The translations under genes and the position numbers were made by a program. DNA of 63,060 nucleotides, filler included. It is 5 parts of 5 records of this genome, joined end to end, with 100 filler letters (N's around TTAATTAATTAA, not from the genome) between each part and the next. Parts side by side here need not be neighbours in the genome. Positions count along the whole stretch, not along the records: positions 1 to 17,230 come from SRR31156797_10223; 4 more parts are not named here. One strand, written 5' to 3'. How positions within the stretch are numbered: position 1 is the stretch's first letter; every line of letters begins with the position of its first letter. Shown piece after piece: positions 482 through 17,230 of this stretch. A model generated the notes under the pieces. It made no database searches, had not been told where the DNA came from, and saw only the letters and a program-made list of their open reading frames with translations.

Positions 482-486
482 TTATC

Positions 487-518: not shown

Positions 519-523
519 ATTAT

Positions 524-828: not shown

Positions 829-976
829 ACACAATATTATGCCAATAATTTCAAAAATAAAAACCCATGAACGGAAAATGAGATCTGCATCACGAAAATA
901 AAGTTGACAATCCTCTTTTTTCTTTACAAATTGGCATATGTCATAAATATATAGAATAGAAGTAAAAAGGTCGGTT

Positions 977-1522: not shown

Positions 1523-1574
1523 CTTTAATAATCGGTGTATCAAAAATCCTTAATCCATAATTTTCTCGTCACTA

Positions 1575-1647
1575 CCAGTTACTAGTCACTAGTTACCAGT
1601 TACCGACCCCAGACCCCAGATCCCGGATCTGTGGCGCCCGTCACAGA
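1575..1647. repeat. Short 7-mer tandem repeats plus hairpin
   Basis: CYAGTYA x4, then GACCCCA/GATCCCG x3, then TCTGTGGCG-cc-CGTCACAGA stem. Confidence 0.7.
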
Positions 1648-1731
1648 ATATCGCTTGTAAACAATCTTATTTATCTATAAATTTTCCTCTTATTGAAGGA
1701 ATAAGCAATCAGTATAATATTAAAGAGAATC

Positions 1732-3213
1732 ATGCAAGAAAAACTCAAACTTTCCCAATTAGAACAATATTTATCTAAAGCAGCATGGATACTGAAGGGT
1801 CCTGTAGACGCCTCAGACTTTAAAGTATATATTTTCCCGCTTTTGTTTTTTAAACGTATTTCTGATGTCTATGATGAAGAGTATGCACTTGCTCTTGAGG
1901 AATCCGGTGGTGATAAGGAGTACGCTAACTTACCCGAATTCCATCGATTTATTATTCCTGAGGGATGCCATTGGAATGATGTTCGTGAGCAAACAACAAA
2001 TGTAGGTTTAGCGATTGAAAAAGCTTTACGCGGTATTGAACAATCAAATCAAAAATATTTATATGGCATTTTTGGTGATGCTCAATGGAGTAATAAGAAT
2101 AAACTTTCTGATCGTCTACTGGTTGATTTAATTGAGCACTTTTCACAATATGTTTTATCGAATAATAATGTTGATTCTGATTTATTAGGTAATTCTTACG
2201 AATATTTAATTAAACATTTTGCTGATTTAACCAATAAAAAAGCAGGTGAATTCTACACGCCGAGATCGGTAGTTCATTTGTTAGGTTTAATTCTTGATCC
2301 CCATGAAGGCGAAACAATTTATGATCCTGCCTGTGGAACCGGGGGCATGTTACTTGAAAGTGTTAATCATTTGCAGGATAAAAACGAAGATTATCGAACA
2401 CTCAAGCTTTTTGGTCAAGAAAAAAACCTAACCTCAAGCTCTATTGCTAGAATGAACATGTTTTTGCATGGAATCGAAGATTTTCAGATTATACGCGATG
2501 ATACATTAAGAAATCCTGCCTTTTTTGAAGCGGATGGATTAAAAACCTTCGATTGTGTGATTGCAAATCCACCTTTTTCACTCAAGGATTGGGGTGCCGA
2601 GAACTGGGCAAATGATCCATATGGACGGAATATTGCTGGTGTTCCTCCCAAAGGCAATGGTGATATGGCTTGGGTTCAGCATATGATCAAATCCATGAAT
2701 AGTACCGGGCGTATGACGGTAGTGCTCCCTCATGGTGCACTGTTTCGTAAAGGAGCCGAAGGTAAGATTAGAAAAGCCCTGTTAGAACAAGATTTGTTAG
2801 AAGCAGTAATTGGTTTAGGACAAAACATATTCTATGGCACTCAACTTGCCGCTTGCGTCATGGTGTTTAAACAAAATAAAAATGAAAACAAAAAAGGTAA
2901 AATATTATTTATTGATGCTTCCGATCAAATACGAGTCGGGAGAGCTCAGAATTTTTTAGAACCAGAACATGTTAAGCAAATATATGAGTGGTATCAAAAA
3001 TTTGATGATGTTGAAAATTATGCAAAAGTAGCAAATGTCGAAGATTTAAAAGAAAATGATTATAACCTAAATATTCCATTGTACGTTGAAAAAATAATTG
3101 AGGATAATTTACCCTCAGTTGAGGAAGCATTAAGTGACTTAAAAAATGCGTGGAATGCCTCTCTAAAAGCAGAAGAAAAATTCAAAGCGATATTGAAAGA
3201 TTTTATAAAATGA
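1732..3213 (+). CDS. hsdM: Type I R-M methyltransferase M1 (NPPF, predicted m6A)
   Basis: GEFYTP, DPACGTGG (motif I), NPPF (motif IV), HsdM N-terminal domain. Confidence 0.95.
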   Translation: MQEKLKLSQLEQYLSKAAWILKGPVDASDFKVYIFPLLFFKRISDVYDEEYALALEESGGDKEYANLPEFHRFIIPEGCHWNDVREQTTNVGLAIEKALRGIEQSNQKYLYGIFGDAQWSNKNKLSDRLLVDLIEHFSQYVLSNNNVDSDLLGNSYEYLIKHFADLTNKKAGEFYTPRSVVHLLGLILDPHEGETIYDPACGTGGMLLESVNHLQDKNEDYRTLKLFGQEKNLTSSSIARMNMFLHGIEDFQIIRDDTLRNPAFFEADGLKTFDCVIANPPFSLKDWGAENWANDPYGRNIAGVPPKGNGDMAWVQHMIKSMNSTGRMTVVLPHGALFRKGAEGKIRKALLEQDLLEAVIGLGQNIFYGTQLAACVMVFKQNKNENKKGKILFIDASDQIRVGRAQNFLEPEHVKQIYEWYQKFDDVENYAKVANVEDLKENDYNLNIPLYVEKIIEDNLPSVEEALSDLKNAWNASLKAEEKFKAILKDFIK

Positions 3214-4673
3214 CCCAAAAAGAACTCGAAAAATATCTCTGGGGGGCAGCAACTGCTCTCCGTGGAACGATCGATGCGGGAGATTACAAGCAGTACATCT
3301 TTCCATTACTCTTCTTTAAGCGAATTTGCGATGTCTACGACGAGGAGTACGCCAAGGCTCTTGAAGAGAGTGACGGCGATATCGAATACGCTGAGTTTGC
3401 CGAAAACCATCACTTCCAGGTACCCAAGGGCTCTCATTGGAGCGATGTGCGTGAAACTACCGTGAATGTGGGAATGGCGCTGCAGGAAGCGATGCGAGAG
3501 ATTGAGAAAGCCAACCCGGGAACGCTCTACGGTATCTTTGGTGATGCAAGCTGGACCAATAAAGATCGCCTCTCCGACGAGACACTCACCAATCTCATAG
3601 AACACTACTCACAACACAAGCTCGACCTGGCTACAGTTCCCGATGATCAACTGGGCAATGCCTACGAGTATCTCATTAAAGAGTTTGCCGATGACAGCGG
3701 CCACACGGCAGCGGAGTTCTACACCAACCGCACCGTGGTAAAACTGATGACGATGATTATGGACCCTCAGCCGGGTGAATCGGTGTATGATCCCACATGT
3801 GGTTCTGGTGGGCTCCTGCTTAACTGTGCTCTTCACCTCAAAGAAGAGGGCAAAGAATACCGTACTCTAAAGCTCTACGGACAGGAGATTAACCTGATAA
3901 CCTCGGCTATTGCCCGAATGAATATGTTCATGCACGGTATTGAGGAGTTCTCTATTATCCGTGGTGATACCTTGGCACAGCCTGCCTTTCTGGAAAACGA
4001 TGAGTTGAAAAAGTTCAATGTGATTCTTGCTAACCCCCCTTACTCTATTAGTCAATGGGATAACAAGTCCTTTGAAAGCGACCCTTGGGGACGAAATATG
4101 TGGGGGAATCCTCCAGCAGGTTGTGCTGATTATGCGTTTCAACAGCATATTCATAAAAGTTTGGATGAGGAAAATGGAAGATCTGCAATACTTTGGCCAC
4201 ACGGAATTTTATTCCGTGAAATGGAAAAGAAAATGCGTGAAGAAATGATTAAAACAAATACTGTTGAGTGTGTTATTGGTCTTGGGGCAAATCTTTTCTA
4301 CAATTCTCCTATGGAAGCTTCAATTCTTGTGTGTAACAATAACAAAAAAGCAGATAGAAAAGGTAAAATTCTTTTCATAGATGCACTAAATGAAGTTAAA
4401 AGGGAAAAAACTAATTCTTACTTAACAGAGAAGCATATTAACAAAATTTATGAGGCTTACCTTAACTTTAGTGAAGTTAAAGACTTTTCTACGATAATGA
4501 CTATAGATGAAGTTTTAGGAAAGAATTCTAATTTAAAAGTGTCAAAGTATATCCGGTCATCAAAAATGCCCGATAGAGACTCTTCTACATTCAAAGAGCT
4601 CTACGATAACTTCATAAGCTCCGGGGAAGAACTAAAAAGTAATATGTCAAATTTATTTAAGGAGTTGAAATAA
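3210..4673 (+). CDS. hsdM: Type I R-M methyltransferase M2 (NPPY, predicted m4C)
   Basis: AEFYTN, DPTCGSGG, NPPY; ATGA overlap with the M1 stop; clear paralogue of M1. Confidence 0.93.
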   Translation: MTQKELEKYLWGAATALRGTIDAGDYKQYIFPLLFFKRICDVYDEEYAKALEESDGDIEYAEFAENHHFQVPKGSHWSDVRETTVNVGMALQEAMREIEKANPGTLYGIFGDASWTNKDRLSDETLTNLIEHYSQHKLDLATVPDDQLGNAYEYLIKEFADDSGHTAAEFYTNRTVVKLMTMIMDPQPGESVYDPTCGSGGLLLNCALHLKEEGKEYRTLKLYGQEINLITSAIARMNMFMHGIEEFSIIRGDTLAQPAFLENDELKKFNVILANPPYSISQWDNKSFESDPWGRNMWGNPPAGCADYAFQQHIHKSLDEENGRSAILWPHGILFREMEKKMREEMIKTNTVECVIGLGANLFYNSPMEASILVCNNNKKADRKGKILFIDALNEVKREKTNSYLTEKHINKIYEAYLNFSEVKDFSTIMTIDEVLGKNSNLKVSKYIRSSKMPDRDSSTFKELYDNFISSGEELKSNMSNLFKELK

Positions 4674-5794
4674 TGAAACTGTCTTTAGATAAATCAAATT
4701 GGCAAAAAGTTCTTTTTGGTGATGTGGTTAAAAAAGTAACTAATAAAGTTGCTCCATTTGAGTATAACTCTGATATCGTTGTAGAAGGTGGACACATCAA
4801 TAAACGGGATTTTCATATTCGTGACTATGAAAATAAAAACGAATTAGGATACCTTGGCCCAGCATTTCATATGGGGTTTAAAAAGAGGCAGATACTTTAT
4901 GTATCAAGAAATCCCCATTTAATGAAAGTCGGTTATCCAGATTTTGATGGTATATGTTCGAATACCACATTCATTATGGAGACTATAAACGAAGAGGTAT
5001 TACGAAATGATTTAATACCTTTTCTGATGCATTCAGATACCTTTATAGAACAATCTGTTAGTAATGTCCGAGGAGGGGTTAATCCGTATGTGAACTGGGG
5101 TGATTTAGCCTGCATAGAATTCCTCCTTCCCCCGAAAGAGCAGCAAGCGGAACTGGCGGAACTGTTCTGGTCGATGGATGAGGTGATTGAGAAAGAGTTG
5201 ACGGTGTTGGAGAGTTTGAAAGTTTCACGAGAAGCAACTTTCGAAGAACTCGTTGAAGAATCTCAAGGAAAAATGACTCCTTTATCAAAAATACTGGTAC
5301 CAAAAAAAAGTAAAAGTGCAGTACCACATCATCGAAAAAAGTACATCGGTTTAGAACATATTACTTCTGGTAGTTTCAACTGTACTGAATATGGAAATAC
5401 AGAAGATGTTCAAGCTCAATGTAATATTGTCGATACTGGTGATTTGTGTTATAGCAAATTGAGACCGTATTTGGACAAAGCCTTTATTGCGTCATTTGAT
5501 GCCGTCTCAACTACAGAATTACTAATTTATGATACGAAAGATGTGTCAAAAGATTACTTGCTGTATCACCTCCATAGCAAACCTTTTGTTGATTATGTAT
5601 CAGGAAAAGGCTTTGGTACAAAGATGCCAAGGGTTAGTCATAAAATTATTGGTGAATATCAGGTTAAAATTGTAAAAAATGAAACTGATATTCTTAATAG
5701 TATGCAAAAGATTATGCTCGCAGATTATCAGTTAAGAGAAAAGCTTGCTTCATCAAAATCTCTCCAAAAATCCCTCATCAACCAGGTATTCTAA
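4673..5794 (+). CDS. hsdS: Type I R-M specificity subunit
   Basis: Two TRD-like halves separated by LPPKEQQAELA coil; TAATG overlap with M2; lies between hsdM and hsdR. Confidence 0.9.
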   Translation: MKLSLDKSNWQKVLFGDVVKKVTNKVAPFEYNSDIVVEGGHINKRDFHIRDYENKNELGYLGPAFHMGFKKRQILYVSRNPHLMKVGYPDFDGICSNTTFIMETINEEVLRNDLIPFLMHSDTFIEQSVSNVRGGVNPYVNWGDLACIEFLLPPKEQQAELAELFWSMDEVIEKELTVLESLKVSREATFEELVEESQGKMTPLSKILVPKKSKSAVPHHRKKYIGLEHITSGSFNCTEYGNTEDVQAQCNIVDTGDLCYSKLRPYLDKAFIASFDAVSTTELLIYDTKDVSKDYLLYHLHSKPFVDYVSGKGFGTKMPRVSHKIIGEYQVKIVKNETDILNSMQKIMLADYQLREKLASSKSLQKSLINQVF

Positions 5795-5795
5795 T

Positions 5796-8765
5796 ATGTC
5801 ATTTACCGAACTCAATAGCGTAGAGCACTACATCGTTCATCAGCTCACCGGTGTCAATCTCAATGAGACTAATGCCATGGCAGAACCACCTGCCACCTAT
5901 GGAGCAGCGTGGAAATATATCTCGGCCTCTGATCTGGACCGCGGTGTCAATGAGGTGCTTGTAGAGAGCACACTCAAAGCAGCGTTAATACGGCTCAACC
6001 CGGAGATAGCCGCAAAGCCCGAGCTTGCCGATGAAGTTATCTATAAACTTCGTGCTATTCTTATTTCGGTACAACAGACTGGTTTGGTGCGAGCCAACGA
6101 GGAGTTTTTCCTCTGGCTCTCTGGCGAAAAGACAATGCCCTTTGGGGAGAACAACTCACACCGTTCCGTACGTCTTATCGACTTTGATGATATTACTAAT
6201 AACGACTATGTGGTGACCAATCAGTTTCGCATTCACCACCGAGAGACAAAAATTCCCGATGTGGTGATGCTCATTAACGGTATTCCCGTGGTGGTGGGTG
6301 AGGCAAAAACACCTATTCGCCCTTCAGTCTCATGGCTAGATGGCGCGCATGAAATTCATGATATTTATGAAAACAACGTTCCACAATTATTTGTGCCCAA
6401 TATTTTATCTTTTGCTACCGAAGGGAAAGAGTTTTATTACGGCGCTGTAAGAACTGCATTAGAATTTTGGTCACCTTGGCGTCTTGAGAATGATGAAGAG
6501 GCGTTTTCTAAGAAACTGGGGTTAGCTGAAATTGGGAATGAAATGTCTGATTTGCTAAGTCCGGTCCGCTTATTGGATATTCTTCAGAATTTCTCTCTTT
6601 ATTCCAGCGATAAGAAAAAACGAAGAGTAAAAATTATTCCTCGTTTCCAACAATATGAAGGAGCTAATAAAATTGTTGAAAGAGTGATCAATGGGCATGT
6701 TAAAAAAGGATTAATCTGGCATTTTCAGGGATCTGGTAAATCTTTTTTAATGGTGTTTGCTGCTCAAAAATTGAGACGAGCAACAGAATTAAAAAGTCCA
6801 ACAGTAATTATTCTAGTTGATCGCACAGATCTCGATACCCAAATTTCTGGCACCTTTAATGCCGCAGATGTAGCGAATGTTGAAACCACTGATAGCATTA
6901 AACAACTTCAGCATTTGCTGGAACGTGATACACGCAAGATTATAATTTCCATGATTCACAAATTTAAAGATGCGCAGCCGAAAATGAATACACGGGATAA
7001 TATCATTGTTTTGGTTGATGAAGCGCATCGAACACAAGAAGGTGATTTGGGTCGACAAATGCGCGCTTCCCTGCCGAACGCATTCTTGTTTGGCTTAACT
7101 GGAACACCCGTAAATAAGGCTGACAAAAATACATTTTGGGCCTTTGGGGCATCAGAAGATCAGGGTGGATATATGTCACGCTATACGTTTCAGGATTCTA
7201 TCCGTGATGATGCCACCTTACCTTTGCACTTTGAACCACGCTTGGTAGATGTTCACGTTGATAAACGAACCATTGATAAAGCAATGGAAGAGTTTAAAGA
7301 AAGTGCAGCCTTATCTGATGAAGAAGCAGATGCCCTGAGTAAAAAATCAGCAAAAATGGCTGCTTTTTTGAAATCACCAGAACGTGTAGCTAAAATTGTT
7401 AAGGATATAGCGAATCATTTTAGTGAAAAAGTTGCTCCCCATGGTTTTAAAGCCATGATTGTCACGCCAGATCGCTTTGCTTGCGTTCAGTACAAAGAAG
7501 AGTTAGATAAATATTTTCCCGAAGTAGCCAGCACGATTGTGATGACCACTTCCGCAAATGATGAATTTGAATTCAAACAAAAATGGGGAATAGATAAAAG
7601 CAAACAAGAACAAATTATTGATGAATTTAATGACCCACAATCTGAGTTAAAATTCATAATTGTTACAGCAAAACTATTAACAGGTTTTGATTCGCCGATT
7701 TTACAAACCATGTATCTTGATAAATCAATAAAAGATCATACTTTGCTCCAGGCTATCTGTCGTACAAATAGAAAGTACAAGAATAAATCTTTTGGTCGCA
7801 TTGTTGATTACTTCGGTGTTTTTGATGATGCCGCAAAAGCACTTGAATTTGATGAAGAAAGCATAAAGACAGTCATTTCAAATCTTTCAGAACTACGTGA
7901 AAAGCTTCCAGAGGCTATGAAAGATGCCTTGAATCATTTTATTGGCGTCGATAGAAGTATTAGCGGTTTTGAAGGTTTAGAAAAAGCCCAAGAAGCTATC
8001 AAAACAGACGAACAAAAAGATGCCTTTGCTAAGGATTATAAATATTTATCTAAACTATGGGAATCACTATCACCAGATCCTATTTTAAATTTATTTAATG
8101 AGGATTATAAATGGTTATCACAGGTATTTGAATCTGTAAAACCTGCCTCAGATAATATTGGAAAGTTGTTGTGGTTCTCATTGGGAGCACAAACCACCAA
8201 ACTCATTCATGAAAACATTCATGTAGGAGATGTTCATCAATTGGATGAATTTGTTTTGGATGCAGATGTAATTGAGGATATCTTCAATAATCCTGATCCG
8301 AAAAATGCAAATAAATTACAGAAACTCCTCATTAAGCGTTTTAGAAAACATGGCAAAAATCCAAGATTTATTAAACTAAGTGAACGTCTTGAAAAATTAC
8401 GAGATAAAGCTGAGCAAGGGCTCATTACATCCATCGAATTCATAAAAGAACTTTGCAAATTAGCAAAAGAAACCGTTCAAGCCGAAAAAGAACTAGAAGA
8501 AGCCATACAGGATAAATCTCCCAAAACTGCACTTACTGAATTATTTCTTGAACTTAAAACCGATCAAACACCAGCTGTGGTTGAACGCATTGTTAACGAT
8601 ATTGATTCGATCGTACGAATAGTAAGATTTCCCGGTTGGCAAAATACAAATTCCGGAGAACGCGAAGTTCAAAAATCACTCCGTAAAGCTCTATTAAAAT
8701 ATAAATTACACAAAGACCAAAATCTGTTTGATAGAGCGTATGCATATATCAAAGAGTATTATTAA
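5796..8765 (+). CDS. hsdR: Type I R-M restriction subunit
   Basis: PDVV..INGIP..GEAK nuclease motif, QGSGKS Walker A, DEAH, GLTGTP, LTGFD, QAICRTNR. Confidence 0.95.
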   Translation: MSFTELNSVEHYIVHQLTGVNLNETNAMAEPPATYGAAWKYISASDLDRGVNEVLVESTLKAALIRLNPEIAAKPELADEVIYKLRAILISVQQTGLVRANEEFFLWLSGEKTMPFGENNSHRSVRLIDFDDITNNDYVVTNQFRIHHRETKIPDVVMLINGIPVVVGEAKTPIRPSVSWLDGAHEIHDIYENNVPQLFVPNILSFATEGKEFYYGAVRTALEFWSPWRLENDEEAFSKKLGLAEIGNEMSDLLSPVRLLDILQNFSLYSSDKKKRRVKIIPRFQQYEGANKIVERVINGHVKKGLIWHFQGSGKSFLMVFAAQKLRRATELKSPTVIILVDRTDLDTQISGTFNAADVANVETTDSIKQLQHLLERDTRKIIISMIHKFKDAQPKMNTRDNIIVLVDEAHRTQEGDLGRQMRASLPNAFLFGLTGTPVNKADKNTFWAFGASEDQGGYMSRYTFQDSIRDDATLPLHFEPRLVDVHVDKRTIDKAMEEFKESAALSDEEADALSKKSAKMAAFLKSPERVAKIVKDIANHFSEKVAPHGFKAMIVTPDRFACVQYKEELDKYFPEVASTIVMTTSANDEFEFKQKWGIDKSKQEQIIDEFNDPQSELKFIIVTAKLLTGFDSPILQTMYLDKSIKDHTLLQAICRTNRKYKNKSFGRIVDYFGVFDDAAKALEFDEESIKTVISNLSELREKLPEAMKDALNHFIGVDRSISGFEGLEKAQEAIKTDEQKDAFAKDYKYLSKLWESLSPDPILNLFNEDYKWLSQVFESVKPASDNIGKLLWFSLGAQTTKLIHENIHVGDVHQLDEFVLDADVIEDIFNNPDPKNANKLQKLLIKRFRKHGKNPRFIKLSERLEKLRDKAEQGLITSIEFIKELCKLAKETVQAEKELEEAIQDKSPKTALTELFLELKTDQTPAVVERIVNDIDSIVRIVRFPGWQNTNSGEREVQKSLRKALLKYKLHKDQNLFDRAYAYIKEYY

Positions 8766-8799
8766 ACTAATAAATTATCAATAACATACGGGCTAATTT

Positions 8800-10428
8800 A
8801 TGTCTGATGTAATCAACGATTTATCATTTCCTGAATGGGTTGAAAAAGAAGCCGCAGAAACAGGTGGACTAGATCTTCTTGGTTTAAGAAATGTAGCTCA
8901 ATCGATAAGTACTTATTGCCTGAATGGAATTACCACAATCTCCCCACAAATTAGATATTTGGGAATCCGTGCTTGGATTTTGCAAATGTATTCGGAATGT
9001 CAACTGCCAGATGATTATAAAACATATATTAAATTTGGAGCAAATCTAGAAGCTGCGGTAGCTATAGGCACAAAATTAAATGATACAACTGTGACAGGTA
9101 TCGTTGGTAGCACCAAAGCAGAAGAAATTATTGAAAACAGCAATGATACTATTGAAATTGATCGACTAGTCTCTCAATTGGTTATAAATATGTATACTGG
9201 CCCCTCAATTGATTTAGGAATAGCTTTTCAGAGGGAATCAGGAATAACTGGTTTGACAAAAGAACGTGGCGAATTACTGGCTAATTCTATTATGGAAAAA
9301 GTCAATGACCTTGATATTGTAAAAAAAATATTTTTTAAAAAAAAAGTAGAACAATTCTCACATTCTGAATTAATGGAATTAGGTAAAATTCTTTCTATTA
9401 ACAATATACCAGAAGAAGAAAGAGAAATTCTGATTGATATTATTATTCCGCCTAACAAAAGTCCGATTGGATGGGACAATGATATTAGAAGAGTTGCTAC
9501 ATATACCCTATTGCTTAAATTAGCAAAGAAATTAGATGCTATCCCAACGGTCGATAAGTTTTTTGAGGAGATAAATAATCCATCAGAAGATATCAGAGAA
9601 ATATTTAAGGAAATATTAGATGGATGGCTATGCTTTCTCATTCGTGATTCTTTGGCAGTCGCCCATGAAAAAGCACTAGATATTATTAATCATGAACTTG
9701 AAGTATCTCCAAATGAATCAATAACAAGAAAAAGATTATTAAGCACTTTACTTAATGATTATCAAGCTATCATTACTGAATTGAGTATATTTGGAATACC
9801 CGTTGATCAAAAAACACACAAAGAACTTAGATTCAATGATGTCCTGAAGATTGTTGAGGATTCTCTAAACTTTCCTGAACAAAACTCAACTCTTCAAAGA
9901 TGGGACAACACAAATTTTAATGAAAAGTTTCTTATTGAGGAAATACAATCAAAGTATAATGAAAGTGCGGTTTTATTACCAATTGTGTGGATCTTATCAT
10001 ACTTGAGAACAAAAAACATGGATGATGATAATGAATTGCTAGCTGGTCTCTCAAAGGGTGGATGGGGACGTCTTGGGCTTAAGGAAGTAATTATCCCATC
10101 AATAGAAAAATGGAAAATTGAAAATCCAAAATTTTACCAAGTGGTTTTTGAGTTATTAGATAGAACAATTGATCAGCATGTAAGAATATGTTGGTCCAGG
10201 ATGGCAACTGATATAAATAAAGATGTGTCAGTCATTAAATCTGATGGCGATCGAATTCAATTTAGAAAGAAATTTGAAGCTGGTAGAACGGCATCCAGAG
10301 TTAAAGAGGCAATTGGATGGCTACAACAATTACAGTTAATTAATGAAACAGGTATATCTAAAGAGGGAGAAAAAGTTTTAGAAAGAGGTCTAAATACATT
10401 AAAAGAATATTGTAAAGAAGAGAAATAA
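8800..10428 (+). CDS. Hypothetical protein, partner of PLD-family nuclease (DxLG..GITT..RY N-terminal motif)
   Basis: 542 aa AT-rich ORF; TAATG coupling to the next gene; C-terminus resembles a winged helix (AIGWLQQLQLI..ISKEGEKVL); function not assignable. Confidence 0.75.
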   Translation: MSDVINDLSFPEWVEKEAAETGGLDLLGLRNVAQSISTYCLNGITTISPQIRYLGIRAWILQMYSECQLPDDYKTYIKFGANLEAAVAIGTKLNDTTVTGIVGSTKAEEIIENSNDTIEIDRLVSQLVINMYTGPSIDLGIAFQRESGITGLTKERGELLANSIMEKVNDLDIVKKIFFKKKVEQFSHSELMELGKILSINNIPEEEREILIDIIIPPNKSPIGWDNDIRRVATYTLLLKLAKKLDAIPTVDKFFEEINNPSEDIREIFKEILDGWLCFLIRDSLAVAHEKALDIINHELEVSPNESITRKRLLSTLLNDYQAIITELSIFGIPVDQKTHKELRFNDVLKIVEDSLNFPEQNSTLQRWDNTNFNEKFLIEEIQSKYNESAVLLPIVWILSYLRTKNMDDDNELLAGLSKGGWGRLGLKEVIIPSIEKWKIENPKFYQVVFELLDRTIDQHVRICWSRMATDINKDVSVIKSDGDRIQFRKKFEAGRTASRVKEAIGWLQQLQLINETGISKEGEKVLERGLNTLKEYCKEEK

Positions 10429-12998
10429 TGAATTTAAGGGAGTTATGTAGATTAAGAGATTATGAGACGGTTATTGGAACCACCTATAGCTTTGATCCTT
10501 TGTTTTTTGAAAGGGTGATATTAAGGGACTTAAGATTAGGTAATGGTAGAAGAATAATCATTATTGGAGATGCTTCCCAGCTTTCAGAATCTATTAATCG
10601 ATGCTCTTCTCAATTAAAACAAATTGGAAACACAGTCATCATCGAACCGATCCATTTAAAAGGGGCTTTTCATCCTAAAATTCTATTAAAGTTATGTAGA
10701 AATAGTGCTATACTTGCAATTGGTTCGGGAAATATGACAAATGGAGGCTGGGGAGATAATCAAGAAATATTTACAAAATGGGAAATAAAAAAAGATAATC
10801 CAAACTCAGCAGCAATTATTAGTAAAGTTATAAAATGGCTTTTCCCATATGTTCAAAGCGAAATAGCACAAAAATCACTAAATAGAATTTATGATAAATA
10901 CGCAAGTGGTAATAATTCTGAGAACAGCGAATTTGATTTTTATATCACCGAACAGAATAAAACACTTTCGGAGTTTATAAAAACGAAATGGCAAGGAAAG
11001 AAATTCTATACTTTAAAAATATTTACTGGTTCCACAGATAAAAAAGGTGCGTTTATAAAATGGTGTCATGATAATTTTGGAATAAGAAAATGTATTGTAG
11101 CTGCCAATGAGTACAACATATCTTTTGATCTAAACGAAATAAATAAAATACCAGTTGATATCTCAATTTCACCAATTGAATCAAATTCTATGATGCATGC
11201 TAAATTTTATCTTTTTGAGGGACAAGCTGAATCATGTGTAATAACAGGATCAGCAAATTGTTCGAGTAGAGCGTGGCTTCAATCACCAGAAAATGGCGGA
11301 AATGTTGAAGCAATTGTTGTTTATGATAATATTGACTTAGATAATTTTAATGAAATTGTCGATAATTTCTCAACAGAGACAATAAGTATTGATCAAATTA
11401 AACATAAGGAAGTAGAACAAAATAACTCGACTTCTTATAAATTCCTGATATCGAGTCTTACACTTGATATTTTGAATAATGAGCTGAGACTTGAATTTAA
11501 AAAAGCTCCCCCTGTTGGTAGTGAAATTGAAGTAATAATTAACAAAAACTCATATAAACTTGTTGCTGAAAATCCTTCTGTTTGGAGGGGGAATATTGTT
11601 GATATTCAAAGTGATTCATTTAATAAAACGCTTTTTGGAGATATTTATATATTTGAAGAAAACAAGGAACCAACAATAATTCACCACTGGATTAATAATA
11701 TCTCAAATATTGAGTTTGCTTCAAAGAGTCGCCAAATATCAAATGCATTACAAAAATATATAAACTCAAGCAATAATGACGAATTTAATAATGCATCTAA
11801 AGAAATAGCTTTAGTATGCAATAAAATCCTTGAGGAGCCTGATTTGTTTGAGGATCCAATATTTATAAAGCATAAATCTTCTAAAAAAGATTTTGAAGAG
11901 GACACTCAAAATACTACACCACTCACATCAGATTCATTATTTAAATCAATGGCTGATATTGACGAAAACACCAACAATATCCTATTGACTGGAGGTAAGA
12001 TTAATACATCATTATCAATTTCTAGTATTATAGGATTCTTTTTTGATTACCAAGATGAATTAAATAATTCTCCTACTGACACAGAAGAAGAAATTGGTAT
12101 TGATGATGTTGAAGAAGTAGATGCTAAAGACACTCATAAACAAACTGTAAATAATAATAAACCTCAATCTCAGTGCCAAAAAATTGATAAAAAAATAATA
12201 CAAAAACTTAACAAACAAATATCAGAGTATTTTACAAAATTAAGAGATGAGTCATTTAGAGATAATTGTAGTGTAACTAGATTCAAAGAGGCAATATCAT
12301 TACCATTAGTTATTGGTGTCGTGGGTAAGCAGAGTGGTTGGTTGGATCCATTTACATTTCAAAATTGGGTCATTACCATCATTGATATAATATTTAACAT
12401 GGAAATAGATTCTCATAAAGGATTAATTGATTACGTAAAATCTCGCTATTATGAAGATAAACGGTCAGATATTTTTAATCAAGTTATTGGTGATGGAACA
12501 CTTTGGGTAGCATTGTTAACAGGTATTGGTGAGGCAGAGTGGGAAGGAGAGAATAGCAAGATTAATAAGGCAATTGCCATCTCAACTGTAATGCAAAATC
12601 AATCTATTATTTCATCAACAAATGTTGGGCAATTAAAAGCATTAATTGATAATCATAAATTTAAACAAACCGCAGATTGGATTAAGAATAAGCCTCAAAA
12701 AATTATTAAAAGTCTTAAAGAATTAAATCGATATCTAGACAAACATTTTAATACATTTTTAAATAATCAAATTGGCGAAGAGCATTGTAGGGGAGATTTA
12801 GTATATGGTGACAGAGGTTGGGGATTTGTTCAAAATGAAAAAGTCAGTATAGATGATAATACTATTATTAAAGCGTATATGCATTCACTTGGTAAAGAAT
12901 TTAAGGTTAAATCATCTGGTTTTTATGTTAATTTAAGAATAGCACAAAAGAATGATGCGAAATTGAGAAGATTACTATTGGCAATTAACGAAATATAA
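10428..12998 (+). CDS. Phospholipase D-superfamily (nuclease-type) protein with two HxK motifs and long C-terminal extension
   Basis: TTYSFD..FFE; FHPK..GSGNMT..GW..NQE; MHAK..TGSANCS..AW..NVE. Confidence 0.8.
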   Translation: MNLRELCRLRDYETVIGTTYSFDPLFFERVILRDLRLGNGRRIIIIGDASQLSESINRCSSQLKQIGNTVIIEPIHLKGAFHPKILLKLCRNSAILAIGSGNMTNGGWGDNQEIFTKWEIKKDNPNSAAIISKVIKWLFPYVQSEIAQKSLNRIYDKYASGNNSENSEFDFYITEQNKTLSEFIKTKWQGKKFYTLKIFTGSTDKKGAFIKWCHDNFGIRKCIVAANEYNISFDLNEINKIPVDISISPIESNSMMHAKFYLFEGQAESCVITGSANCSSRAWLQSPENGGNVEAIVVYDNIDLDNFNEIVDNFSTETISIDQIKHKEVEQNNSTSYKFLISSLTLDILNNELRLEFKKAPPVGSEIEVIINKNSYKLVAENPSVWRGNIVDIQSDSFNKTLFGDIYIFEENKEPTIIHHWINNISNIEFASKSRQISNALQKYINSSNNDEFNNASKEIALVCNKILEEPDLFEDPIFIKHKSSKKDFEEDTQNTTPLTSDSLFKSMADIDENTNNILLTGGKINTSLSISSIIGFFFDYQDELNNSPTDTEEEIGIDDVEEVDAKDTHKQTVNNNKPQSQCQKIDKKIIQKLNKQISEYFTKLRDESFRDNCSVTRFKEAISLPLVIGVVGKQSGWLDPFTFQNWVITIIDIIFNMEIDSHKGLIDYVKSRYYEDKRSDIFNQVIGDGTLWVALLTGIGEAEWEGENSKINKAIAISTVMQNQSIISSTNVGQLKALIDNHKFKQTADWIKNKPQKIIKSLKELNRYLDKHFNTFLNNQIGEEHCRGDLVYGDRGWGFVQNEKVSIDDNTIIKAYMHSLGKEFKVKSSGFYVNLRIAQKNDAKLRRLLLAINEI

Positions 12999-13044
12999 TA
13001 AAATGATGTATATCGATAATAAATTAAATATTACAGAGTAAATT

Positions 13045-13929
13045 ATGCCACTTATTGATAATGATATGAAAATTCGCATAGCTGCTTTTGATTGGGTAAA
13101 GAAACAATCAGAGAAGTATGACTATGCAATTCCTCGAGAAGTTTTAAGAATAGGTTTTGAGTTCAAACAAAAAATGATTCCCTTAGTAAGTCAGCCCGGT
13201 ATCTGGAAACCTGCTATTTTAGATTTTCCAATCTCAATAACATCTACGTTAAGAAGCAAATATGAAGATGTCCAAGAGGAAGATTACTTGCTTTATAATT
13301 ATTGCAGAGAAAAAGATCCATATTATAGAGATAATGTTTACTTGCGAAAAACTATGATAAAAAAACGACCTTTGATATATTTTGTAGAAACTATTCCTAA
13401 AAGATATTTAGCGCAATTTCCCGCTTATATTATTGATGATGATATTGATAATGAGAAATTTAAGGTTGCTTTTGATGAAGCAAGAATGACAGATGCCAAT
13501 TATATTGTTTCTGATATTAGACGACAATATGTTACACGAGAAATAAAGCAAAGGATCCATCAAGCAAAATTTAGAGAGCAGGTTCTACACGCTTATAAAT
13601 GTCAATGTACATTATGTCGCTTAAAGTATCGTGAGCTTCTTGATGCAGCACATATTATTCCTGATGCTGAAGAACATGGTGATGCTGTTGTCAATAATGG
13701 TTTATCTCTTTGTAAAATTCACCATGCAGCATTTGATAAAAATATTATTGGTATTTCGCCTGATTATCAGATTAAAGTTCGAGAAGATATTTTGCATGAA
13801 GTCGATGGTCCTATGCTAAAGCACGGGATTCAGGAGATGAATAATCAGAAGATTATTTTGCCTTATCATAAAAGGGATTGGCCAGATCGGGAGAGGCTGG
13901 AAGAGCGGTTTACCATGTTTAATCAATAG
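13045..13929 (+). CDS. HNH endonuclease, putative restriction enzyme
   Basis: RIHQAKFREQVL..CTLC..LDAAHI..NGLSLCKIHHAAFD; separate N-terminal domain (GIWKP..ISITS..YED). Confidence 0.88.
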   Translation: MPLIDNDMKIRIAAFDWVKKQSEKYDYAIPREVLRIGFEFKQKMIPLVSQPGIWKPAILDFPISITSTLRSKYEDVQEEDYLLYNYCREKDPYYRDNVYLRKTMIKKRPLIYFVETIPKRYLAQFPAYIIDDDIDNEKFKVAFDEARMTDANYIVSDIRRQYVTREIKQRIHQAKFREQVLHAYKCQCTLCRLKYRELLDAAHIIPDAEEHGDAVVNNGLSLCKIHHAAFDKNIIGISPDYQIKVREDILHEVDGPMLKHGIQEMNNQKIILPYHKRDWPDRERLEERFTMFNQ

Positions 13930-13938
13930 GAAATATCA

Positions 13939-15231
13939 ATGAATGATGAAAATTTAAACCAAATTAATTATGAAGAAGAAAGATCTCCTTTTGAGGAGGT
14001 AATTAGAGATTATATTAATAGAATTAACGCTCAGAATGATATCTATCCACTAATTCTTAATCTTATTGCCGCAAAAACAATTCAAGAATATGAATTATTA
14101 AATAAATTCATCGAAAAAGATGAAGTTGAAATTAAGGAAGATTTAGAAAAAATATTTATTCCAATTGATAAAATTCAAGAATACTTTGATCTTCGGAATA
14201 CGATGGAAACCTCTGTTGCGGCAATATCAATATACCCGAGGAACTCAATTGTATCATTTGTTTGTCAGTTTGATGCGTTTTTGAGTGAGTTATTAAGGAT
14301 TGTTTACTATTCAAAACCTGAGATTCTAAATTTTTCAGATAAAAATATTCAATTTTCTGACTTAGTAGAATTTGACTCAATTGACGATGCAAAAGAATAT
14401 ATTATTGAAAAAGAAATTGAATCGGTATTGCGTGAAAGTCATTTAAAGCATTTCGAATGGATGGAAAAAACTTTCAAAATGAAACTCAGGAAGGATTTGC
14501 CAAGTTTTATTGAATTCTTAGAAATTACTGAAAGACGAAATCTATATGTTCATAATAATGGTAAGGCTTCAAGACAATATATTGAGAATTGTAAAAAGCA
14601 CGGCATCTCAGATCTTGAAGAAATTAAAGTTGGAGAAGAATTATTAGTTGATATTGAATATTTTAATAAATGTTATAATGTGCTTTTTGAAATTGGCGTG
14701 AAGCTTAGTCAAGTATTATGGAGAAAATTAATACCAGATCAAATTGAAGAAGCTGATGTTTATCTTAATGTGATTTGTTATGATTTGCTTGTAGGTAATC
14801 AAAATAAATTAGCTCTTAACTTACTAACATTTGCTACTGATACATTAAAAAAGCATTGTGATGAAGAAATGCTTTGTTATTTTAGAATAAATAAAGCCCT
14901 AGCGTATTATCAATTGGATGAAAAAGAGAAAGCCAAAGAAACTATACTTTCTTATGATTGGTCAGCAACCGGGAATCATTTAAAACTTGCGGTATCTGTA
15001 TTGAAAGAAGATTATAAGGAGGCTAGTTTGATAATGAAGGTTATTGGCAATAGTGTAAAACCAAGCAAATCTGATTATAGTGATTGGCCTCTTTTTAGAA
15101 AATTTAGAGAAACTGATATTTTTAAATCAACTTATAAAGAAATTTTTGATGAAGAGTTCATGTTTATTGAAAAAAACCCAGTAGAATTGAAAGATATTGT
15201 TAATAAAATGATTGAACTGAATGAAGAATAA
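13939..15231 (+). CDS. Putative HEPN-domain protein with helical (TPR-like) C-terminus
   Basis: FDAFLSELLR helix and Rx4H motif (RNLYVH-NNG); helical-repeat-like C-terminal half. Confidence 0.6.
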   Translation: MNDENLNQINYEEERSPFEEVIRDYINRINAQNDIYPLILNLIAAKTIQEYELLNKFIEKDEVEIKEDLEKIFIPIDKIQEYFDLRNTMETSVAAISIYPRNSIVSFVCQFDAFLSELLRIVYYSKPEILNFSDKNIQFSDLVEFDSIDDAKEYIIEKEIESVLRESHLKHFEWMEKTFKMKLRKDLPSFIEFLEITERRNLYVHNNGKASRQYIENCKKHGISDLEEIKVGEELLVDIEYFNKCYNVLFEIGVKLSQVLWRKLIPDQIEEADVYLNVICYDLLVGNQNKLALNLLTFATDTLKKHCDEEMLCYFRINKALAYYQLDEKEKAKETILSYDWSATGNHLKLAVSVLKEDYKEASLIMKVIGNSVKPSKSDYSDWPLFRKFRETDIFKSTYKEIFDEEFMFIEKNPVELKDIVNKMIELNEE

Positions 15232-15331
15232 TTAGTATTCATCACTACATCAACATCCTCACTGCGTTCGCAAGGCAAAAGTAAAAAGGCCCGCCTTCAT
15301 TAAAGCTTCGGCTGACAGGCAAAAGATAAAA

Positions 15332-15742
15332 GTGAAAAAACTCTACATCGACATCGACGGCGTTCTCCTCACATCCCGGCATACTCAAGCTGCTCCCGGA
15401 GCGGAGAAATTGATCGATTTTGCAGTTAAAAACTATGACTGTTTTTGGCTCACTTCTCATTGTCGTGAAGGAGACGCAAGTTTTGTATTACGCTTGCTGT
15501 CGCAGTATTTCGATGAAGCGACAATGGAAAAGCTGGAAAGCGTAAAAGCGACCGATTGGCAAAGCTGGAAGACGGATGCCATTGATTTGGAGTCCGATTT
15601 CTATTGGCTGGATGATCGTCCCATGCATGCAGAGATGCAATTGCTGAAAGAGTATGGCAAATTGGATAGATTGATTGTAGTTGATTTAAATCGTCCGAAT
15701 GAAATGGAAAATATTATTGAGTTATTGAAAAAGCATTTATAG
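15332..15742 (+). CDS. Small HAD-superfamily phosphatase
   Basis: GTG start; LYIDIDGVL motif I, WLTS motif II, WLDD motif IV. Confidence 0.75.
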   Translation: MKKLYIDIDGVLLTSRHTQAAPGAEKLIDFAVKNYDCFWLTSHCREGDASFVLRLLSQYFDEATMEKLESVKATDWQSWKTDAIDLESDFYWLDDRPMHAEMQLLKEYGKLDRLIVVDLNRPNEMENIIELLKKHL

Positions 15743-15829
15743 TTGTTTTGTATCGCAATGCTCGCGGAGGTCTCCCTTACGGGACCCCTTCGGGGCTGAA
15801 ACAAGTTCAGGATGACGCCCGCGAGCGCA

Positions 15830-15885
15830 CCCATACTCCCACACTCCCAAACTCTCTCAGTGCCCAGTGCTCAGCGCTCAGCGCT
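15830..15885. repeat. Short tandem repeats downstream of pfkA
   Basis: CCCAnACT x3 then CYCAGYG x4. Confidence 0.7.
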
Positions 15886-15888
15886 TAA

Positions 15889-16875
15889 CTATATTGACAT
15901 GATGTCAATAATTTCTAATTTCTTCTCATCCATTTTCCTCTTATCCCGCTTACTCTCGGCAAAGGGATGATGCGCAATGTCACCGTTCTTAACACCGATC
16001 ATAACGCCGCTTTCGCCGGCAAGAAGGGCTTCGACGCTGGCAACACCCATGCGGGTGGCGTATATGCGGTCCCCGGCTGTGGGAGAACCGCCTCTTTGAA
16101 GATGACCCAAGATGGTCACGCGCACGTCGTATTCGGGATGCTCTTTGCGTACGTCCTCTGCGATCTGAAAGGCGCCGCCGACCTGATCACCTTCTGCGAC
16201 CAGTACAATGGAACTTTTTTTGTGCTTGAGTTTATCGTCGGCTAAATATTTTTTCAGTTTATTTAAGTCATCGGTGCGTTCAGGGACCAATACACCTTCG
16301 GCGCCGGTGGCGATGCCGCTGTTCAGGGTAAGGAAGCCTGCTCGGCGCCCCATGACCTCGATGAAAAATAATCGATTGTGTGCTGATGCGGTGTCGCGGA
16401 TCTTGTCCACGGCTTCGACGACTGTATTTAATGCGGTATCATATCCGATGGTATAATCGGTGCCAATAATGTCATTATCTATCGTGCCGGGTATGCCTAC
16501 CACGGGGATGTCGAATTCTTTGCTGAATTCCTGCGCGCCGGCAAAGGAGCCATCACCGCCAATAACAACCAAAGCATCAATGCCGTGCTTTTTGAGGTTC
16601 TCGTAACCTTTTTTGCGTCCCTCGTAAGTGCGAAATTCCTTACAGCGGGCAGTTTTTAAAATGGTTCCGCCTGTTTGAATGATATTGGATACCGAGCGCG
16701 ATGTCATGCTCTTGATCTTGTCGTCCACCATGCCCTGATAGCCACGCTTGATGCCGTAGACCTCCATCTTGTTGAATAATGCCGTGCGGACTACTGCCCG
16801 TACCGCTGCGTTCATGCCGGGACTGTCGCCGCCAGAGGTTAGGACTGCTATTGTTTTTATGTTCGTTGAGTTCAT
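15889..16875 (-). CDS. pfkA: ATP-dependent 6-phosphofructokinase
   Basis: TSGGDSPGMNA, GGDGS, PGTIDND, EVMGR, GHLQRGG. Confidence 0.97.
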   Translation of the reverse strand: MNSTNIKTIAVLTSGGDSPGMNAAVRAVVRTALFNKMEVYGIKRGYQGMVDDKIKSMTSRSVSNIIQTGGTILKTARCKEFRTYEGRKKGYENLKKHGIDALVVIGGDGSFAGAQEFSKEFDIPVVGIPGTIDNDIIGTDYTIGYDTALNTVVEAVDKIRDTASAHNRLFFIEVMGRRAGFLTLNSGIATGAEGVLVPERTDDLNKLKKYLADDKLKHKKSSIVLVAEGDQVGGAFQIAEDVRKEHPEYDVRVTILGHLQRGGSPTAGDRIYATRMGVASVEALLAGESGVMIGVKNGDIAHHPFAESKRDKRKMDEKKLEIIDIMSI

Positions 16876-16929
16876 GTGAGTGTCCTTTGATTGTTCTGTG
16901 CGTCAATATAAATATTTTATTCATAGTGC

Positions 16930-17194
16930 ACAATGAACAATGTACAATGAACAAGGTTGTTCAATGTTGAATGTGATCGCTTTGCCCCAGGTTAAAACCA
17001 GGGCTTACTGAAAACCTTCAGTAACAGCGGGGTTTAAACCCCGTGTAGGAGGCAAGACTCCGCAAGGAGTCGAATATAGTAGTTTAAATTTCCAATATGA
17101 ATAGAACCGCGTCGTGGTTCAATATATTCAACCCCTACAGGGTTGGGATGTTAAATGGGAATTATTTTCTACTATATTTGACCACTATGTGGTC
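16930..17194. repeat. 7-mer tandem repeat followed by a cluster of palindromes (REP/MITE-like)
   Basis: ACAATGW x3; hairpins TTACTGAA..TTCAGTAA, GCGGGGTT..AACCCCGT, GACTCC..GGAGTC, GAACCGCG..CGTGGTTC, CAACCC..GGGTTG, GACCAC..GTGGTC. Confidence 0.7.
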
Positions 17195-17230
17195 CGGATA
17201 GTAAGTATTAATTCACAATTTATAATTCAT

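Follow-up and report, generated by a model that had tools for sequence, protein, structure and literature searches.

The locus and its gene pair

The stretch of DNA considered here, called the window, is 63,060 nucleotides (nt) long with filler included and consists of five parts of one genome joined end to end, the first of which (positions 1 to 17,230) comes from the record SRR31156797_10223. Within this first part, directly behind the genes of a Type I restriction-modification (R-M) system, lie two adjoining genes, here named A and B, which are the subject of this report (Table 1). A first-pass annotation, made from the letters alone, had singled them out as a candidate anti-phage module formed by an unknown protein and a nuclease of the phospholipase D (PLD) superfamily, appended to hsdR without a helicase of its own. 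Its account of the gene arrangement agrees with the open reading frames (ORFs): the 542-amino-acid (aa) protein A begins after a gap of 34 nt from the hsdR stop (8766-8799), and the TAA stop codon of A overlaps the ATG of the 856-aa protein B by one base (TAATG). Both genes can be taken as real, since 143 relatives of A and 184 of B were found at E<=0.001 and both proteins fold confidently in AlphaFold2 (AF2) models (predicted local distance difference test, pLDDT, 90.9 for A with 68 aligned sequences and 83.6 for B with 63). The exact A and B proteins are absent from the 15-billion collection that was searched.

A two-gene module conserved across species

The two genes form a stable two-gene module, not a broken triplet. 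A peptide-pattern scan of one genome per species, which undercounts, retrieved 29 loci among about 185,000 species; the family is therefore rare, and according to the record titles it spans Acidobacteriota, Pseudomonadota, Desulfobacterota-type metagenome-assembled genomes, Bacteroidota, Hydrogenedentota and Neomarinimicrobiota. In all 29 loci, each from another species than that of the window, a full-length homologue of B lies directly after A. The two genes overlap by 4 nt in 19 of these loci and are spaced by -14 to +2 nt in 24; the remaining five spacings (-62 to -172) probably reflect the choice of the longest ORF as the start. This overlap is kept down to identities of 31% for A and about 23-25% for B. 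When all 1765 flanking ORFs were clustered, only A and B were present in every locus, the next clusters being shadow frames within A or B and the largest cluster of true neighbours comprising 5 loci, and no conserved third gene emerged from the 29 loci and the window. Nearly half of the pairs (14/29) stand alone, no gene of the same direction coming within 200 nt of them on either flank. The suggestion that A and B are a stand-alone, two-component pair is borne out by this constancy of the two genes and by the lack of a conserved third.

The pair also occurs on plasmids (four plasmid records; a Cupriavidus megaplasmid and Roseomonas plasmids). On a Roseomonas plasmid it adjoins qatC and qatD, after a P-loop NTPase gene and a hypothetical gene; these names are those of the Prokaryotic Genome Annotation Pipeline, which calls both A and B hypothetical. 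Two contigs of IMG/VR carry the pair, one of them apparently covering the same stretch as locus L008. In the phage collection, tblastn with A gave no match.

Protein B carries a complete double-lobed PLD domain

Two HxK...N half-sites and a PLD fold, the features that place a protein in the PLD (HKD) superfamily, are both present in B. The half-sites that had been read from the sequence as HPK..GSGN and HAK..GSAN are intact: the first (FHPK...GSGN) consists of H82, K84 and N102 (nt 10671-10733) and the second (HAK...GSAN) of H257, K259 and N277 (nt 11196-11258), and both are invariant in 63 aligned homologues. In the spacing of 18 residues from lysine to asparagine and the lack of the classical aspartate they resemble the motif of the Tdp1 type ('HKN'). 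Relatives of B are about 860 aa long and are annotated at most as PLD-like or HKD nucleases. Among the profile libraries, Pfam recognizes only PLDc_2 in B (residues 246-299, E 2.2e-11) and NCBIfam nothing meaningful, and the defence models of PADLOC give ZacB (E 1e-15, over 100 of 586 profile positions) and PDC-M27B (E 1.2e-10). ZacB is the PLD nuclease of Azaca, an anti-phage system whose other components are ZacA (DUF6361) and ZacC, a helicase of superfamily 2 (SF2), as set out in the available part of the preprint that describes it (bioRxiv 10.1101/2025.07.10.664194). All 49 members of the B family examined match the ZacB model, weakly (best E 2.9e-17) and over part of its length; at E<=0.001, 45 of the 49 match PDC-M27B and 15 match DrmC of DISARM. 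The latter two are PLD nucleases of defence systems, PDC-M27B being a PADLOC candidate; B matches them less well than it does ZacB, and the PLD domain is covered only in part. Nothing corresponding to A was detected by the model PDC-M27A (no match of A at E<=10, and none of 24 family members at E<=1), and the name 'PDC-M27' returned nothing from the open-access and bioRxiv literature.

By structure, the catalytic part of the AF2 model is closest to two-lobed enzymes: in an exhaustive search with VIA it aligns with yeast Tdp1 (Z 19.6, 309 aa) and PLD (Z 18.8), and also with vaccinia F13 and PLD4, and single PLD lobes of SauUSI, NucT, Nuc, BfiI and NgoAVII follow at Z 9-11. The best Foldseek matches are likewise tyrosyl-DNA phosphodiesterases (E 1.8e-10). 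These rankings suggest a reading in which A-B has no part in defence and acts instead in DNA processing or repair (Tdp1-like removal of adducts) or in the maintenance of mobile elements, and the occurrence of the pair on plasmids and near integrases and transposases would agree with this reading. Against it, any two-lobed PLD chain aligns best with two-lobed structures such as Tdp1, the nearest families by sequence profile are the defence nucleases ZacB, PDC-M27B and DrmC, and the distribution is patchy and rare across phyla, in a low-GC island and beside defence neighbours (Type I R-M, Qat, BrxC, DUF1156/DUF499, HNH). A function outside defence therefore seems quite improbable to us.

The first-pass annotation had further described an acidic linker in B and some 500 residues with no recognisable domain. 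The linker is found as described, its acidic stretch lying in a region that AF2 leaves disordered, inside which a short segment is conserved (G533 and F539 are near-invariant). The statement on the 500 residues holds in part: the model resolves in them an immunoglobulin (Ig)-like beta-sandwich, helices, the linker, and a helical and a small beta domain (Table 1), but apart from the generic Ig-like fold nothing in them found a convincing match. The sandwich aligns with those of cytokine receptors and of the carbohydrate-binding-module type at Z 6.5-8.4. The C-terminal part, whose helical domain holds a conserved GDGTLW motif (residues 688-693), gave only weak matches to helical-repeat folds, and a search of the ESM Atlas with residues 585-856 gave no usable match. 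Long fused forms of B (1499-4280 aa) were also sought and none was found, which is weak evidence.

Protein A, a conserved family with a candidate DNA-binding fold

Protein A was rightly called unknown, in that it matches no Pfam or NCBIfam family, and likewise nothing in PADLOC at normal thresholds. All its relatives are unnamed: of the 120 matches listed none has a Pfam domain, and the source names, where given, are hypothetical. The family is about 540 aa long, with a best identity of 59%, and a profile search of 1.84 billion cluster representatives returned 215 sequences at E<=1e-30 and 1540 at E<=1e-3. Conservation is strong (mean column identity 51%) and peaks at residues 22-53 (nt 8863-8958; GGLDLLGLR...NGITTISPQIRY), where the N-terminal signature noted earlier, DLLGL..GITT..RY, is present in the translation as part of the motif GGLDLLGLR...GITT..P..RY. 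Seven of its positions (G23, D25, L26, G28, L29, R30 and R52) are invariant in 68 sequences, and the same segment is the part that A has in common with ZacA/DUF6361. Ahead of it, residues 7-16 (nt 8818-8847) include the invariant P11 and W13.

The AF2 model of A (predicted template modelling score 0.89) is mostly helical and of low confidence only at residues 1-22. A Foldseek comparison of this model with the Protein Data Bank (PDB) and the viral models of BFVD, which had been recommended as a check, returned nothing at E<=0.001, and sequence-profile searches of the PDB with the alignments of A and B gave no credible relative (best Pumilio, E 0.005, and LIC12922, E 0.41). The exhaustive VIA search placed first the recognition domain of N.BspD6I (Z 8.6, root-mean-square deviation, rmsd, 6.2, 211 aa) and second that of FokI (Z 7.3, rmsd 5.1, 207 aa), with BpuJI also aligned (Z 6.0, 191 aa); many winged-helix regulators (DtxR/MntR, PadR, MarR) align at Z 5-6.8 over the regions of about 48-206 and 221-542. 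Values of Z under 8-13 are, according to the tool, often obtained with helical proteins. The winged-helix-like end claimed for A accordingly receives moderate support at most, from PadR/MarR-type chains that align at Z 5-6.4, and the idea that A is a multi-winged-helix DNA binder should be taken as a pointer only.

The comparison with Type IIS enzymes can be carried somewhat further. The recognition domains of FokI, N.BspD6I and BpuJI are built of three winged-helix units, and about 190-211 residues of A align with them at Z 6.0-8.6. In FokI, the cleavage domain is held by the third unit, to which the C-terminal part of A, predicted to hold the PLD domain of B, may be likened. There are differences, in that no sequence similarity is detectable, such Z values are common for helical proteins, and A is a separate polypeptide with no conserved cognate methyltransferase.

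Kinship with Azaca and a sibling family

The system to which A-B can best be compared is Azaca. As reported in the accessible part of the preprint, it protects strongly against T4, its cleavage of T4 DNA in vitro requires all three Zac proteins together with the Walker A motif of ZacC, it has a preference for T4 DNA, and mutation of conserved residues of ZacA was without effect in vitro (bioRxiv 10.1101/2025.07.10.664194). Among 401 genomes the PADLOC model of ZacA matches six, five of them at E 1e-83 to 1e-132, and in five genuine Azaca loci ZacA (~390-440 aa), ZacB (~615-710 aa) and ZacC (~1020-1130 aa) are encoded in a row. The first two genes thus stand in the same order as A and B, an unknown protein and then a PLD nuclease. 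The whole double HxK domain is common to B and ZacB, which hhalign aligns at a probability of 97.2% (E 4.5e-11, 285 columns, B 11-319, both lobes); the C-terminal halves of the two proteins do not align. For A the relationship is fainter: the PADLOC model of ZacA covers residues 18-109 at E 0.015 and matches 8 of 24 family members at E<=1 (best 4.4e-4), and hhalign pairs residues 22-143 with ZacA at E 0.0028 and a probability of 10.8%, with a shared pattern of motifs (D-x-L/G-G ... G-T/I-S/T-T ... R-Y ... W).

This pattern is bridged by a sibling family, A'-B'. In genome G085, the 509-aa protein A' matches ZacA weakly (E 1.6e-7) and DUF6361 below threshold (E 2.4e-4), and is a homologue of A along its entire length (hhalign 99.2%, E 6e-20, 481 columns); its gene is followed by that of an 808-aa PLD protein, B', and then by that of a 904-aa UvrD-like helicase of superfamily 1 (SF1). 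Relatives of A' number seven among 401 genomes of one order, and the pair is found in G085, G758, G409, G663, G697 and G129. Its gene order and overlap are those of A-B, and the PLD domain of B' is 27-29% identical to that of B (E 1e-18), but no alignment with B is obtained for the C-terminal half of B'. A UvrD-like helicase (~905 aa) adjoins A'-B' in three of six distinct loci (L049, L061 and L063), once upstream and not downstream; no helicase was found beside the pair in L062, L064 and L065 with the seeds used, and L066 is a fragment only. Judged from these protein comparisons, the three-gene A'-B'-UvrD arrangement has the look of an Azaca-type system whose motor is of SF1 and not of SF2. 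In L049 (2900-9593, - strand) its neighbours are a divergent SNF2 helicase and an MmeI-like methyltransferase-endonuclease.

Through A', remote homology between the N-terminal ~100 residues of A and ZacA is plausible. The picture suggested by these alignments is that of a superfamily with a constant core, an A-type protein plus a PLD nuclease, and with a helicase of SF2 in Azaca, of SF1 in part of the A'-B' loci, or none. Within it, A-B is by its sequence profiles clearly kin to Azaca and yet is not Azaca itself: no ZacC helicase is encoded with the pair in the 29 loci and the window, and A does not reach a family-level score for ZacA/DUF6361. A (542 aa) is also longer than ZacA and alignable with it over about 100 residues only, and B (856 aa) is longer than ZacB and has a different C-terminal half, with about 250 extra residues that are kept within the family and absent from ZacB. 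The idea that this C-terminal half is a decayed ZacC-type helicase was ruled out by a comparison with ZacC (hhalign probability 0.1%). The description of the pair as Azaca-like therefore holds as to kinship, which is real, and needs the qualifier that the kinship is distant. With scores far below family level A-B would not be called Azaca by the PADLOC 2023 models, and the PADLOC 2.0.0 models, when run as the first-pass annotation had advised, do not call the pair.

A predicted complex in which A lies beside the active site

Structure prediction suggests a complex between A and B. With A and residues 1-430 of B, ESMFold2, run without family alignments, gave interface scores (ipSAE) of 0.75, 0.85 and 0.78 (median 0.78), whereas the highest-scoring of three controls had 0.00; the mark that is thereby passed is reached by 51 of 78 solved complexes, by 2 of 108 mismatched pairs and by 7 of 44 pairs of adjacent genes chosen blind. 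At least 80% of contacts recur between the runs, and the pLDDT of the partner is not below 83. Since the sequence searches found no solved relative, this pass is unlikely to be the memory of a known structure. In the best run, residues 7-16 of A (P11, W13) pair with the strand 112-118 of B and touch B at 253-260, 271, 273, 297 and 306-313, beside the second HxK site, with further contacts from A 422-434 and 454-487. We propose that A serves as a DNA-binding or sensor subunit and holds B by its PLD domain.

A contact so close to the active site may also be read as inhibition. A would then be mainly an inhibitor and sensor that keeps B shut until a phage cue releases or activates it, with degradation of host and phage DNA alike, in the manner of abortive infection or of a toxin-antitoxin-like pair. 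Consistent with such a function, the predicted contacts at B 253-260, 271 and 273 bring the N-terminal strand of A next to H257 and K259, the genes are translationally coupled with A first, and a protein as highly conserved as A is more easily reconciled with a fixed contact to a protein or ligand than with a variable DNA specificity. However, at 542 aa A is far larger than typical antitoxins and has putative winged-helix-like DNA-binding units, and the contact near the active site is that of a model only. Moreover, Azaca cuts phage DNA selectively in vitro and is not reported as a suicide nuclease in the part of the preprint at hand (bioRxiv 10.1101/2025.07.10.664194). We consider a suicidal or toxin-like function of A-B unlikely.

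Genomic neighbours and the question of a helicase

The neighbours of A-B are typical of defence islands and mobile DNA. Pfam families were assigned to the three nearest ORFs on each side of the 29 pairs (72 upstream and 72 downstream ORFs). Among the top 25 families listed, those upstream include N6_Mtase (4), Methylase_S (3), DEAD (4), Helicase_C (4), ResIII (2), BrxC/D (1), TnsD (1) and integrase-core or transposase domains, and those downstream include phage integrase (4), WYL (2) and WCX (2). Taken together, hsd genes, BrxC, DUF1156/DUF499, Qat, YhcG, WYL regulators, integrases and transposases are met beside the pair in the other loci. Methyltransferases make up at most a handful of the 144 neighbouring ORFs, and none is conserved with the pair. 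As to DISARM, DUF1998 is not among the top 25 neighbour families listed, and the ORF clustering gave no conserved neighbour resembling drmA or drmB.

Helicases were sought with phmmer and ten SF1/SF2 seeds. No helicase-like ORF was found in the flanks of 21 of the 29 loci, several of which lie on short contigs, so that helicases are undercounted; one was found in the other eight (L013, L014, L018, L019, L021, L022, L026 and L029). These flanking helicases are unrelated to each other, being HsdR, ResIII, DEAD/Cas3-like proteins, a RecQ-like core in a 1412-aa protein and the SNF2 protein of a DUF1156/DUF499 system. With the ZacC model, five A-B genomes gave only short matches to generic helicase motifs (at most 137 of 1019 positions, E 5.6e-15 to 9.6e-5), and matches of the same kind were obtained in 6 of 14 control genomes. 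Since no third gene is conserved and the ZacC matches are at the level of controls, the pair has no dedicated helicase, as had been stated for the window, and the helicase-free form is the norm across the 29 loci. In L026 (270-5367) and L019 (428-8381), large proteins with a RecQ-like core (1412 and 1190 aa; E 3e-56) are encoded upstream of A-B together with small ORFs, and may belong to another, uncharacterised system; L026 holds the closest relative of the window's pair (59% identity).

Among the findings that the first-pass annotation had named as speaking against a new module is that the helicase of a described system had simply been lost here. A-B would then be a broken remnant of Azaca, non-functional at this locus. 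Two facts might be cited for this: Azaca needs ZacC for cleavage, according to the part of the preprint available (bioRxiv 10.1101/2025.07.10.664194), and the sibling loci L049, L061 and L063 keep a UvrD-like helicase. It is contradicted by the helicase-free form being universal in the family (29/29) and by the about 250 additional C-terminal residues of B, which are conserved in the family. Both proteins are, besides, of full length, their catalytic residues are invariant and the gene overlap is kept at the low identities given above, which together indicate long purifying selection. A decayed remnant is thus so improbable that we give it hardly any weight.

Type I R-M genes deserve separate consideration. 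They stand directly upstream of the pair and in the same direction in the window and in 4 of the 29 loci (L002, L016, L018 and L027), the order in these cases always being hsd and then A-B. In L018, a full hsdR-hsdM-yhcG-hsdS operon ends where A starts; the gene embedded in it between hsdM and hsdS (7654-8838) encodes a YhcG/DUF1016 nuclease of the PDDEXK type. The five hsd-linked cases belong to at least four lineages of A, which are 31-37% identical to one another, and have hsdM genes that share only 24-32% identity, so that the juxtaposition of hsd and A-B has arisen independently and repeatedly. The neighbour tally that had been recommended accordingly reads: hsd genes in 4 of 29 loci, a helicase-like ORF in 8 and no helicase-like ORF in 21.

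This recurrence brings up the possibility that A-B is an accessory of the Type I complex, which either uses the translocation by HsdR in place of a helicase or fires when an anti-restriction protein blocks Hsd, by analogy with PrrC and EcoprrI. Besides the independent juxtapositions, always in the same order, the 34-nt gap to hsdR argues for it, which would be too short for a typical promoter and makes co-transcription with hsdR likely, and so does the presence of a ResIII, DEAD or RecQ-like gene directly upstream of A-B in L013, L014 and L026. On the other hand, the pair is without an adjoining hsd gene in 25 of the 29 loci and without a co-directional neighbour in 14, and 21 loci show no flanking helicase-like ORF; the adjacent helicases come from unrelated families; and Type I systems are common in defence islands, which makes adjacency alone weak evidence. 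An obligatory linkage to hsd is not observed, and with 25 of 29 loci lacking it the module cannot depend on Type I R-M. Of the earlier suggestion that the pair uses or guards the Type I complex there remains, then, the recurrent upstream position of the hsd genes, and we look on a role as a Type I accessory as rather improbable.

A proposed mode of action

The reading that we prefer, with a probability of somewhat over one half (about 55%), is that A-B is a self-contained two-protein nuclease module of the defence island, a distant, helicase-free relative of Azaca that cuts foreign DNA. In this scheme, B would be the effector, with both HxK...N half-sites, and hence a complete Tdp1-like PLD active site, in one chain. 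A would be its partner subunit, mostly helical and with winged-helix-like units, whose N-terminal strand (P11, W13) and helix-hairpin at 454-487 are predicted to clamp the PLD domain beside the active site. A may bind DNA and position or gate B, and the complex, a restriction-type enzyme lacking its own methyltransferase, would cut foreign DNA with no need of translocation driven by ATP. As no methyltransferase is conserved with the pair, the host's own DNA would be spared either because it lacks the target or because A gates B, the second of these being the inhibitory function considered above. A target that the host lacks could be modified bases or a phage-specific form of DNA, and would most likely be non-self DNA marked by base modification, as reported for Azaca and other PLD restriction nucleases. 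A modified-base or phage-specific target fits the preference of Azaca for T4 and the helicase-free END nucleases.

The END nucleases are single-chain PLD enzymes that restrict hypermodified phages without a helicase, as described in the part of their preprint that is available (bioRxiv 10.1101/2025.03.31.646159); the combination of a PLD nuclease with a sensor domain is what likens them to A-B. They belong with BfiI, the NgoAVII R protein and SauUSI to the PLD restriction enzymes, in which a PLD lobe serves as DNA endonuclease joined to a separate DNA-sensing part, and the lobes of SauUSI, BfiI and NgoAVII align with B at Z 9.2-11.2 (VIA). These enzymes have one HxK lobe per chain and complete their site by dimerisation, whereas B has both lobes in one chain, like Tdp1; and their sensor is fused (B3-like, SRA-like or iEndoIII), whereas the candidate sensor of A-B is a separate 542-aa protein. 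An END-type sensor was not detected in B: there is no HhH-GPD match in Pfam at E<=0.01, and no EndoIII chain occurs among the best 50 rows of the VIA search, in which the C-terminal domain was searched only within the whole model of B.

Several observations weigh against a restriction nuclease of this kind. The Tdp1-like fold of B would equally suit a DNA-repair enzyme, and Azaca, the only characterised relative, cleaves only with its helicase, on the evidence of the part of the preprint consulted (bioRxiv 10.1101/2025.07.10.664194). The direct link between A and ZacA is weak, with the low hhalign probability given above and none of 24 A members reaching the Pfam model of DUF6361 at E<=1. The fold matches of A lie within the range of Z common for helical proteins, Foldseek having returned none, and the strong conservation of A does not suggest a recognition subunit of variable specificity. 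The interface, too, is poorly marked by conservation: by a hand tally, 6 of 35 interface residues of A are at least 90% conserved against 84 of 542 overall, which is no enrichment, and 11 of 55 of those of B against 62 of 430, which is only a slight one. Finally, the GGLDLLGLR/GITT/RY motif lies outside the predicted interface; it could contact DNA, the C-terminal half of B or a ligand.

A bolder version of the preferred reading can be put forward, to which we attach little credence. In this version A-B would be a minimal core of ancestral type in an 'Azaca superfamily' in which the helicase is optional, working independently of ATP, with a multi-winged-helix subunit that senses non-self DNA, through hypermodified bases or a DNA structure, and then unlocks a Tdp1-like PLD site held in a single chain. 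Its repeated capture at the 3' end of Type I R-M and other translocase operons would be explained by co-operation with them, A-B forming a second layer that cuts modified or anti-restriction-protected DNA missed by the Type I enzyme, or DNA reeled in by the neighbouring motor.

The low-GC island of the window

The GC content across about 1.7-15.7 kb of the window is 28-45%, and only 28-34% in the stretch of 8-15 kb; from 16 kb on it is about 50%, and there housekeeping genes begin (pfkA and genes for a DHH phosphoesterase, a HAD hydrolase and a UvrD-type helicase). The identity of this pfkA to those of three genomes with A-B is no more than 34-42%. All genes of the island are on the + strand (Table 1).

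Table 1. Genes of the island and structural parts of protein B, with positions in the window.
Feature	Position (nt)	Residues	Strand	Remarks
hsdM (first)	1732-3213		+	493 aa; Pfam N6_Mtase/HsdM_N; PADLOC MTase_I
hsdM (second)	3150-4673		+	507 aa; Pfam N6_Mtase/HsdM_N; PADLOC MTase_I
hsdS	4673-5794		+	Pfam Methylase_S; PADLOC Specificity_I
hsdR	5745-8765		+	Pfam HSDR_N/SWI2_SNF2/T1R_D3; PADLOC REase_I
Gene A	8800-10428		+	542 aa
Gene B	10428-12998		+	856 aa
B, two-lobed PLD catalytic domain	10428-11417	1-330	+	Fold and invariant half-sites
B, Ig-like beta-sandwich	11439-11702	338-425	+	Strands of the AF2 model
B, helices		425-470	+	AF2 model
B, acidic disordered linker	11865-12173	480-582	+	pLDDT below 50; acidic stretch DTEEEIGIDDVEEVDAKD
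B, C-terminal part	12189-12995	588-856	+	Helical domain 588-780, small beta domain 785-835
HNH endonuclease	13045-13929		+	294 aa; C-terminal HNH_2 (Pfam E 1.1e-9); PADLOC HNH E 1.7e-22
Unnamed protein	13939-15231		+	430 aa

The R-M system is of an unusual, two-methylase kind, in which two tandem hsdM paralogues (47% identical) precede a single hsdS and a single hsdR; the hsdM ORFs overlap by 64 nt as called, so that the start of the second may lie further downstream. The HNH protein encoded behind B resembles phosphorothioate-DNA-dependent restriction endonucleases (NCBIfam E 3.2e-20, below the cut-off) and TagI (PDB 6ghs, E 0.004), its N-terminal ~140 residues being without assignment, and is by these matches likely a Type IV-like endonuclease. 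A similar HNH protein (E 2e-14) is encoded just after the sibling A'-B' pair in L062. The 430-aa protein next to it has no match in Pfam, NCBIfam or PADLOC; in the ESM Atlas it falls in unnamed clusters of bacterial proteins of about 440 aa (score 0.97-0.98), with a weak lead to HEPN_LA2681 (0.75 only), and it may be another defence gene of the island. Neither the HNH gene nor the 430-aa gene has relatives in the 29 A-B loci, i.e. they are not conserved with the pair.

At the left edge of the island, a strong bidirectional terminator-like hairpin (487-518; stem of 13-14 bp with 8 G-C pairs) precedes small unannotated ORFs. Scans of positions 1-17000 gave 75 promoters against 64.9±8.2 in shuffled sequence and 12 terminators against 10.0±3.4; neither count exceeds expectation, and the scans are therefore uninformative on transcription units.

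Significance

The A-B pair appears to be undescribed: searches of the open-access and bioRxiv literature, supplements aside, yielded nothing beyond the three-gene Azaca and unrelated PLD systems. Azaca is among the least understood of the recent anti-phage systems, and the role of ZacA in it is unknown. A natural, widely conserved form without a helicase raises the question of whether the unknown subunit and the PLD nuclease are the core of such systems, and of what the helicase adds. The confident model of A, from a family without a Pfam entry, and the predicted interface next to the active site of B offer mutations that are directly testable. Should A-B prove inactive in assays, the strict conservation of the family would still require an explanation. 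If it is active, it would be a compact, ATP-independent nuclease that could report modified phage DNA, as has been proposed for the END nucleases in the accessible part of their preprint (bioRxiv 10.1101/2025.03.31.646159), and its recurrence at the ends of Type I R-M operons would lend itself to the study of defences that are layered or that co-operate.

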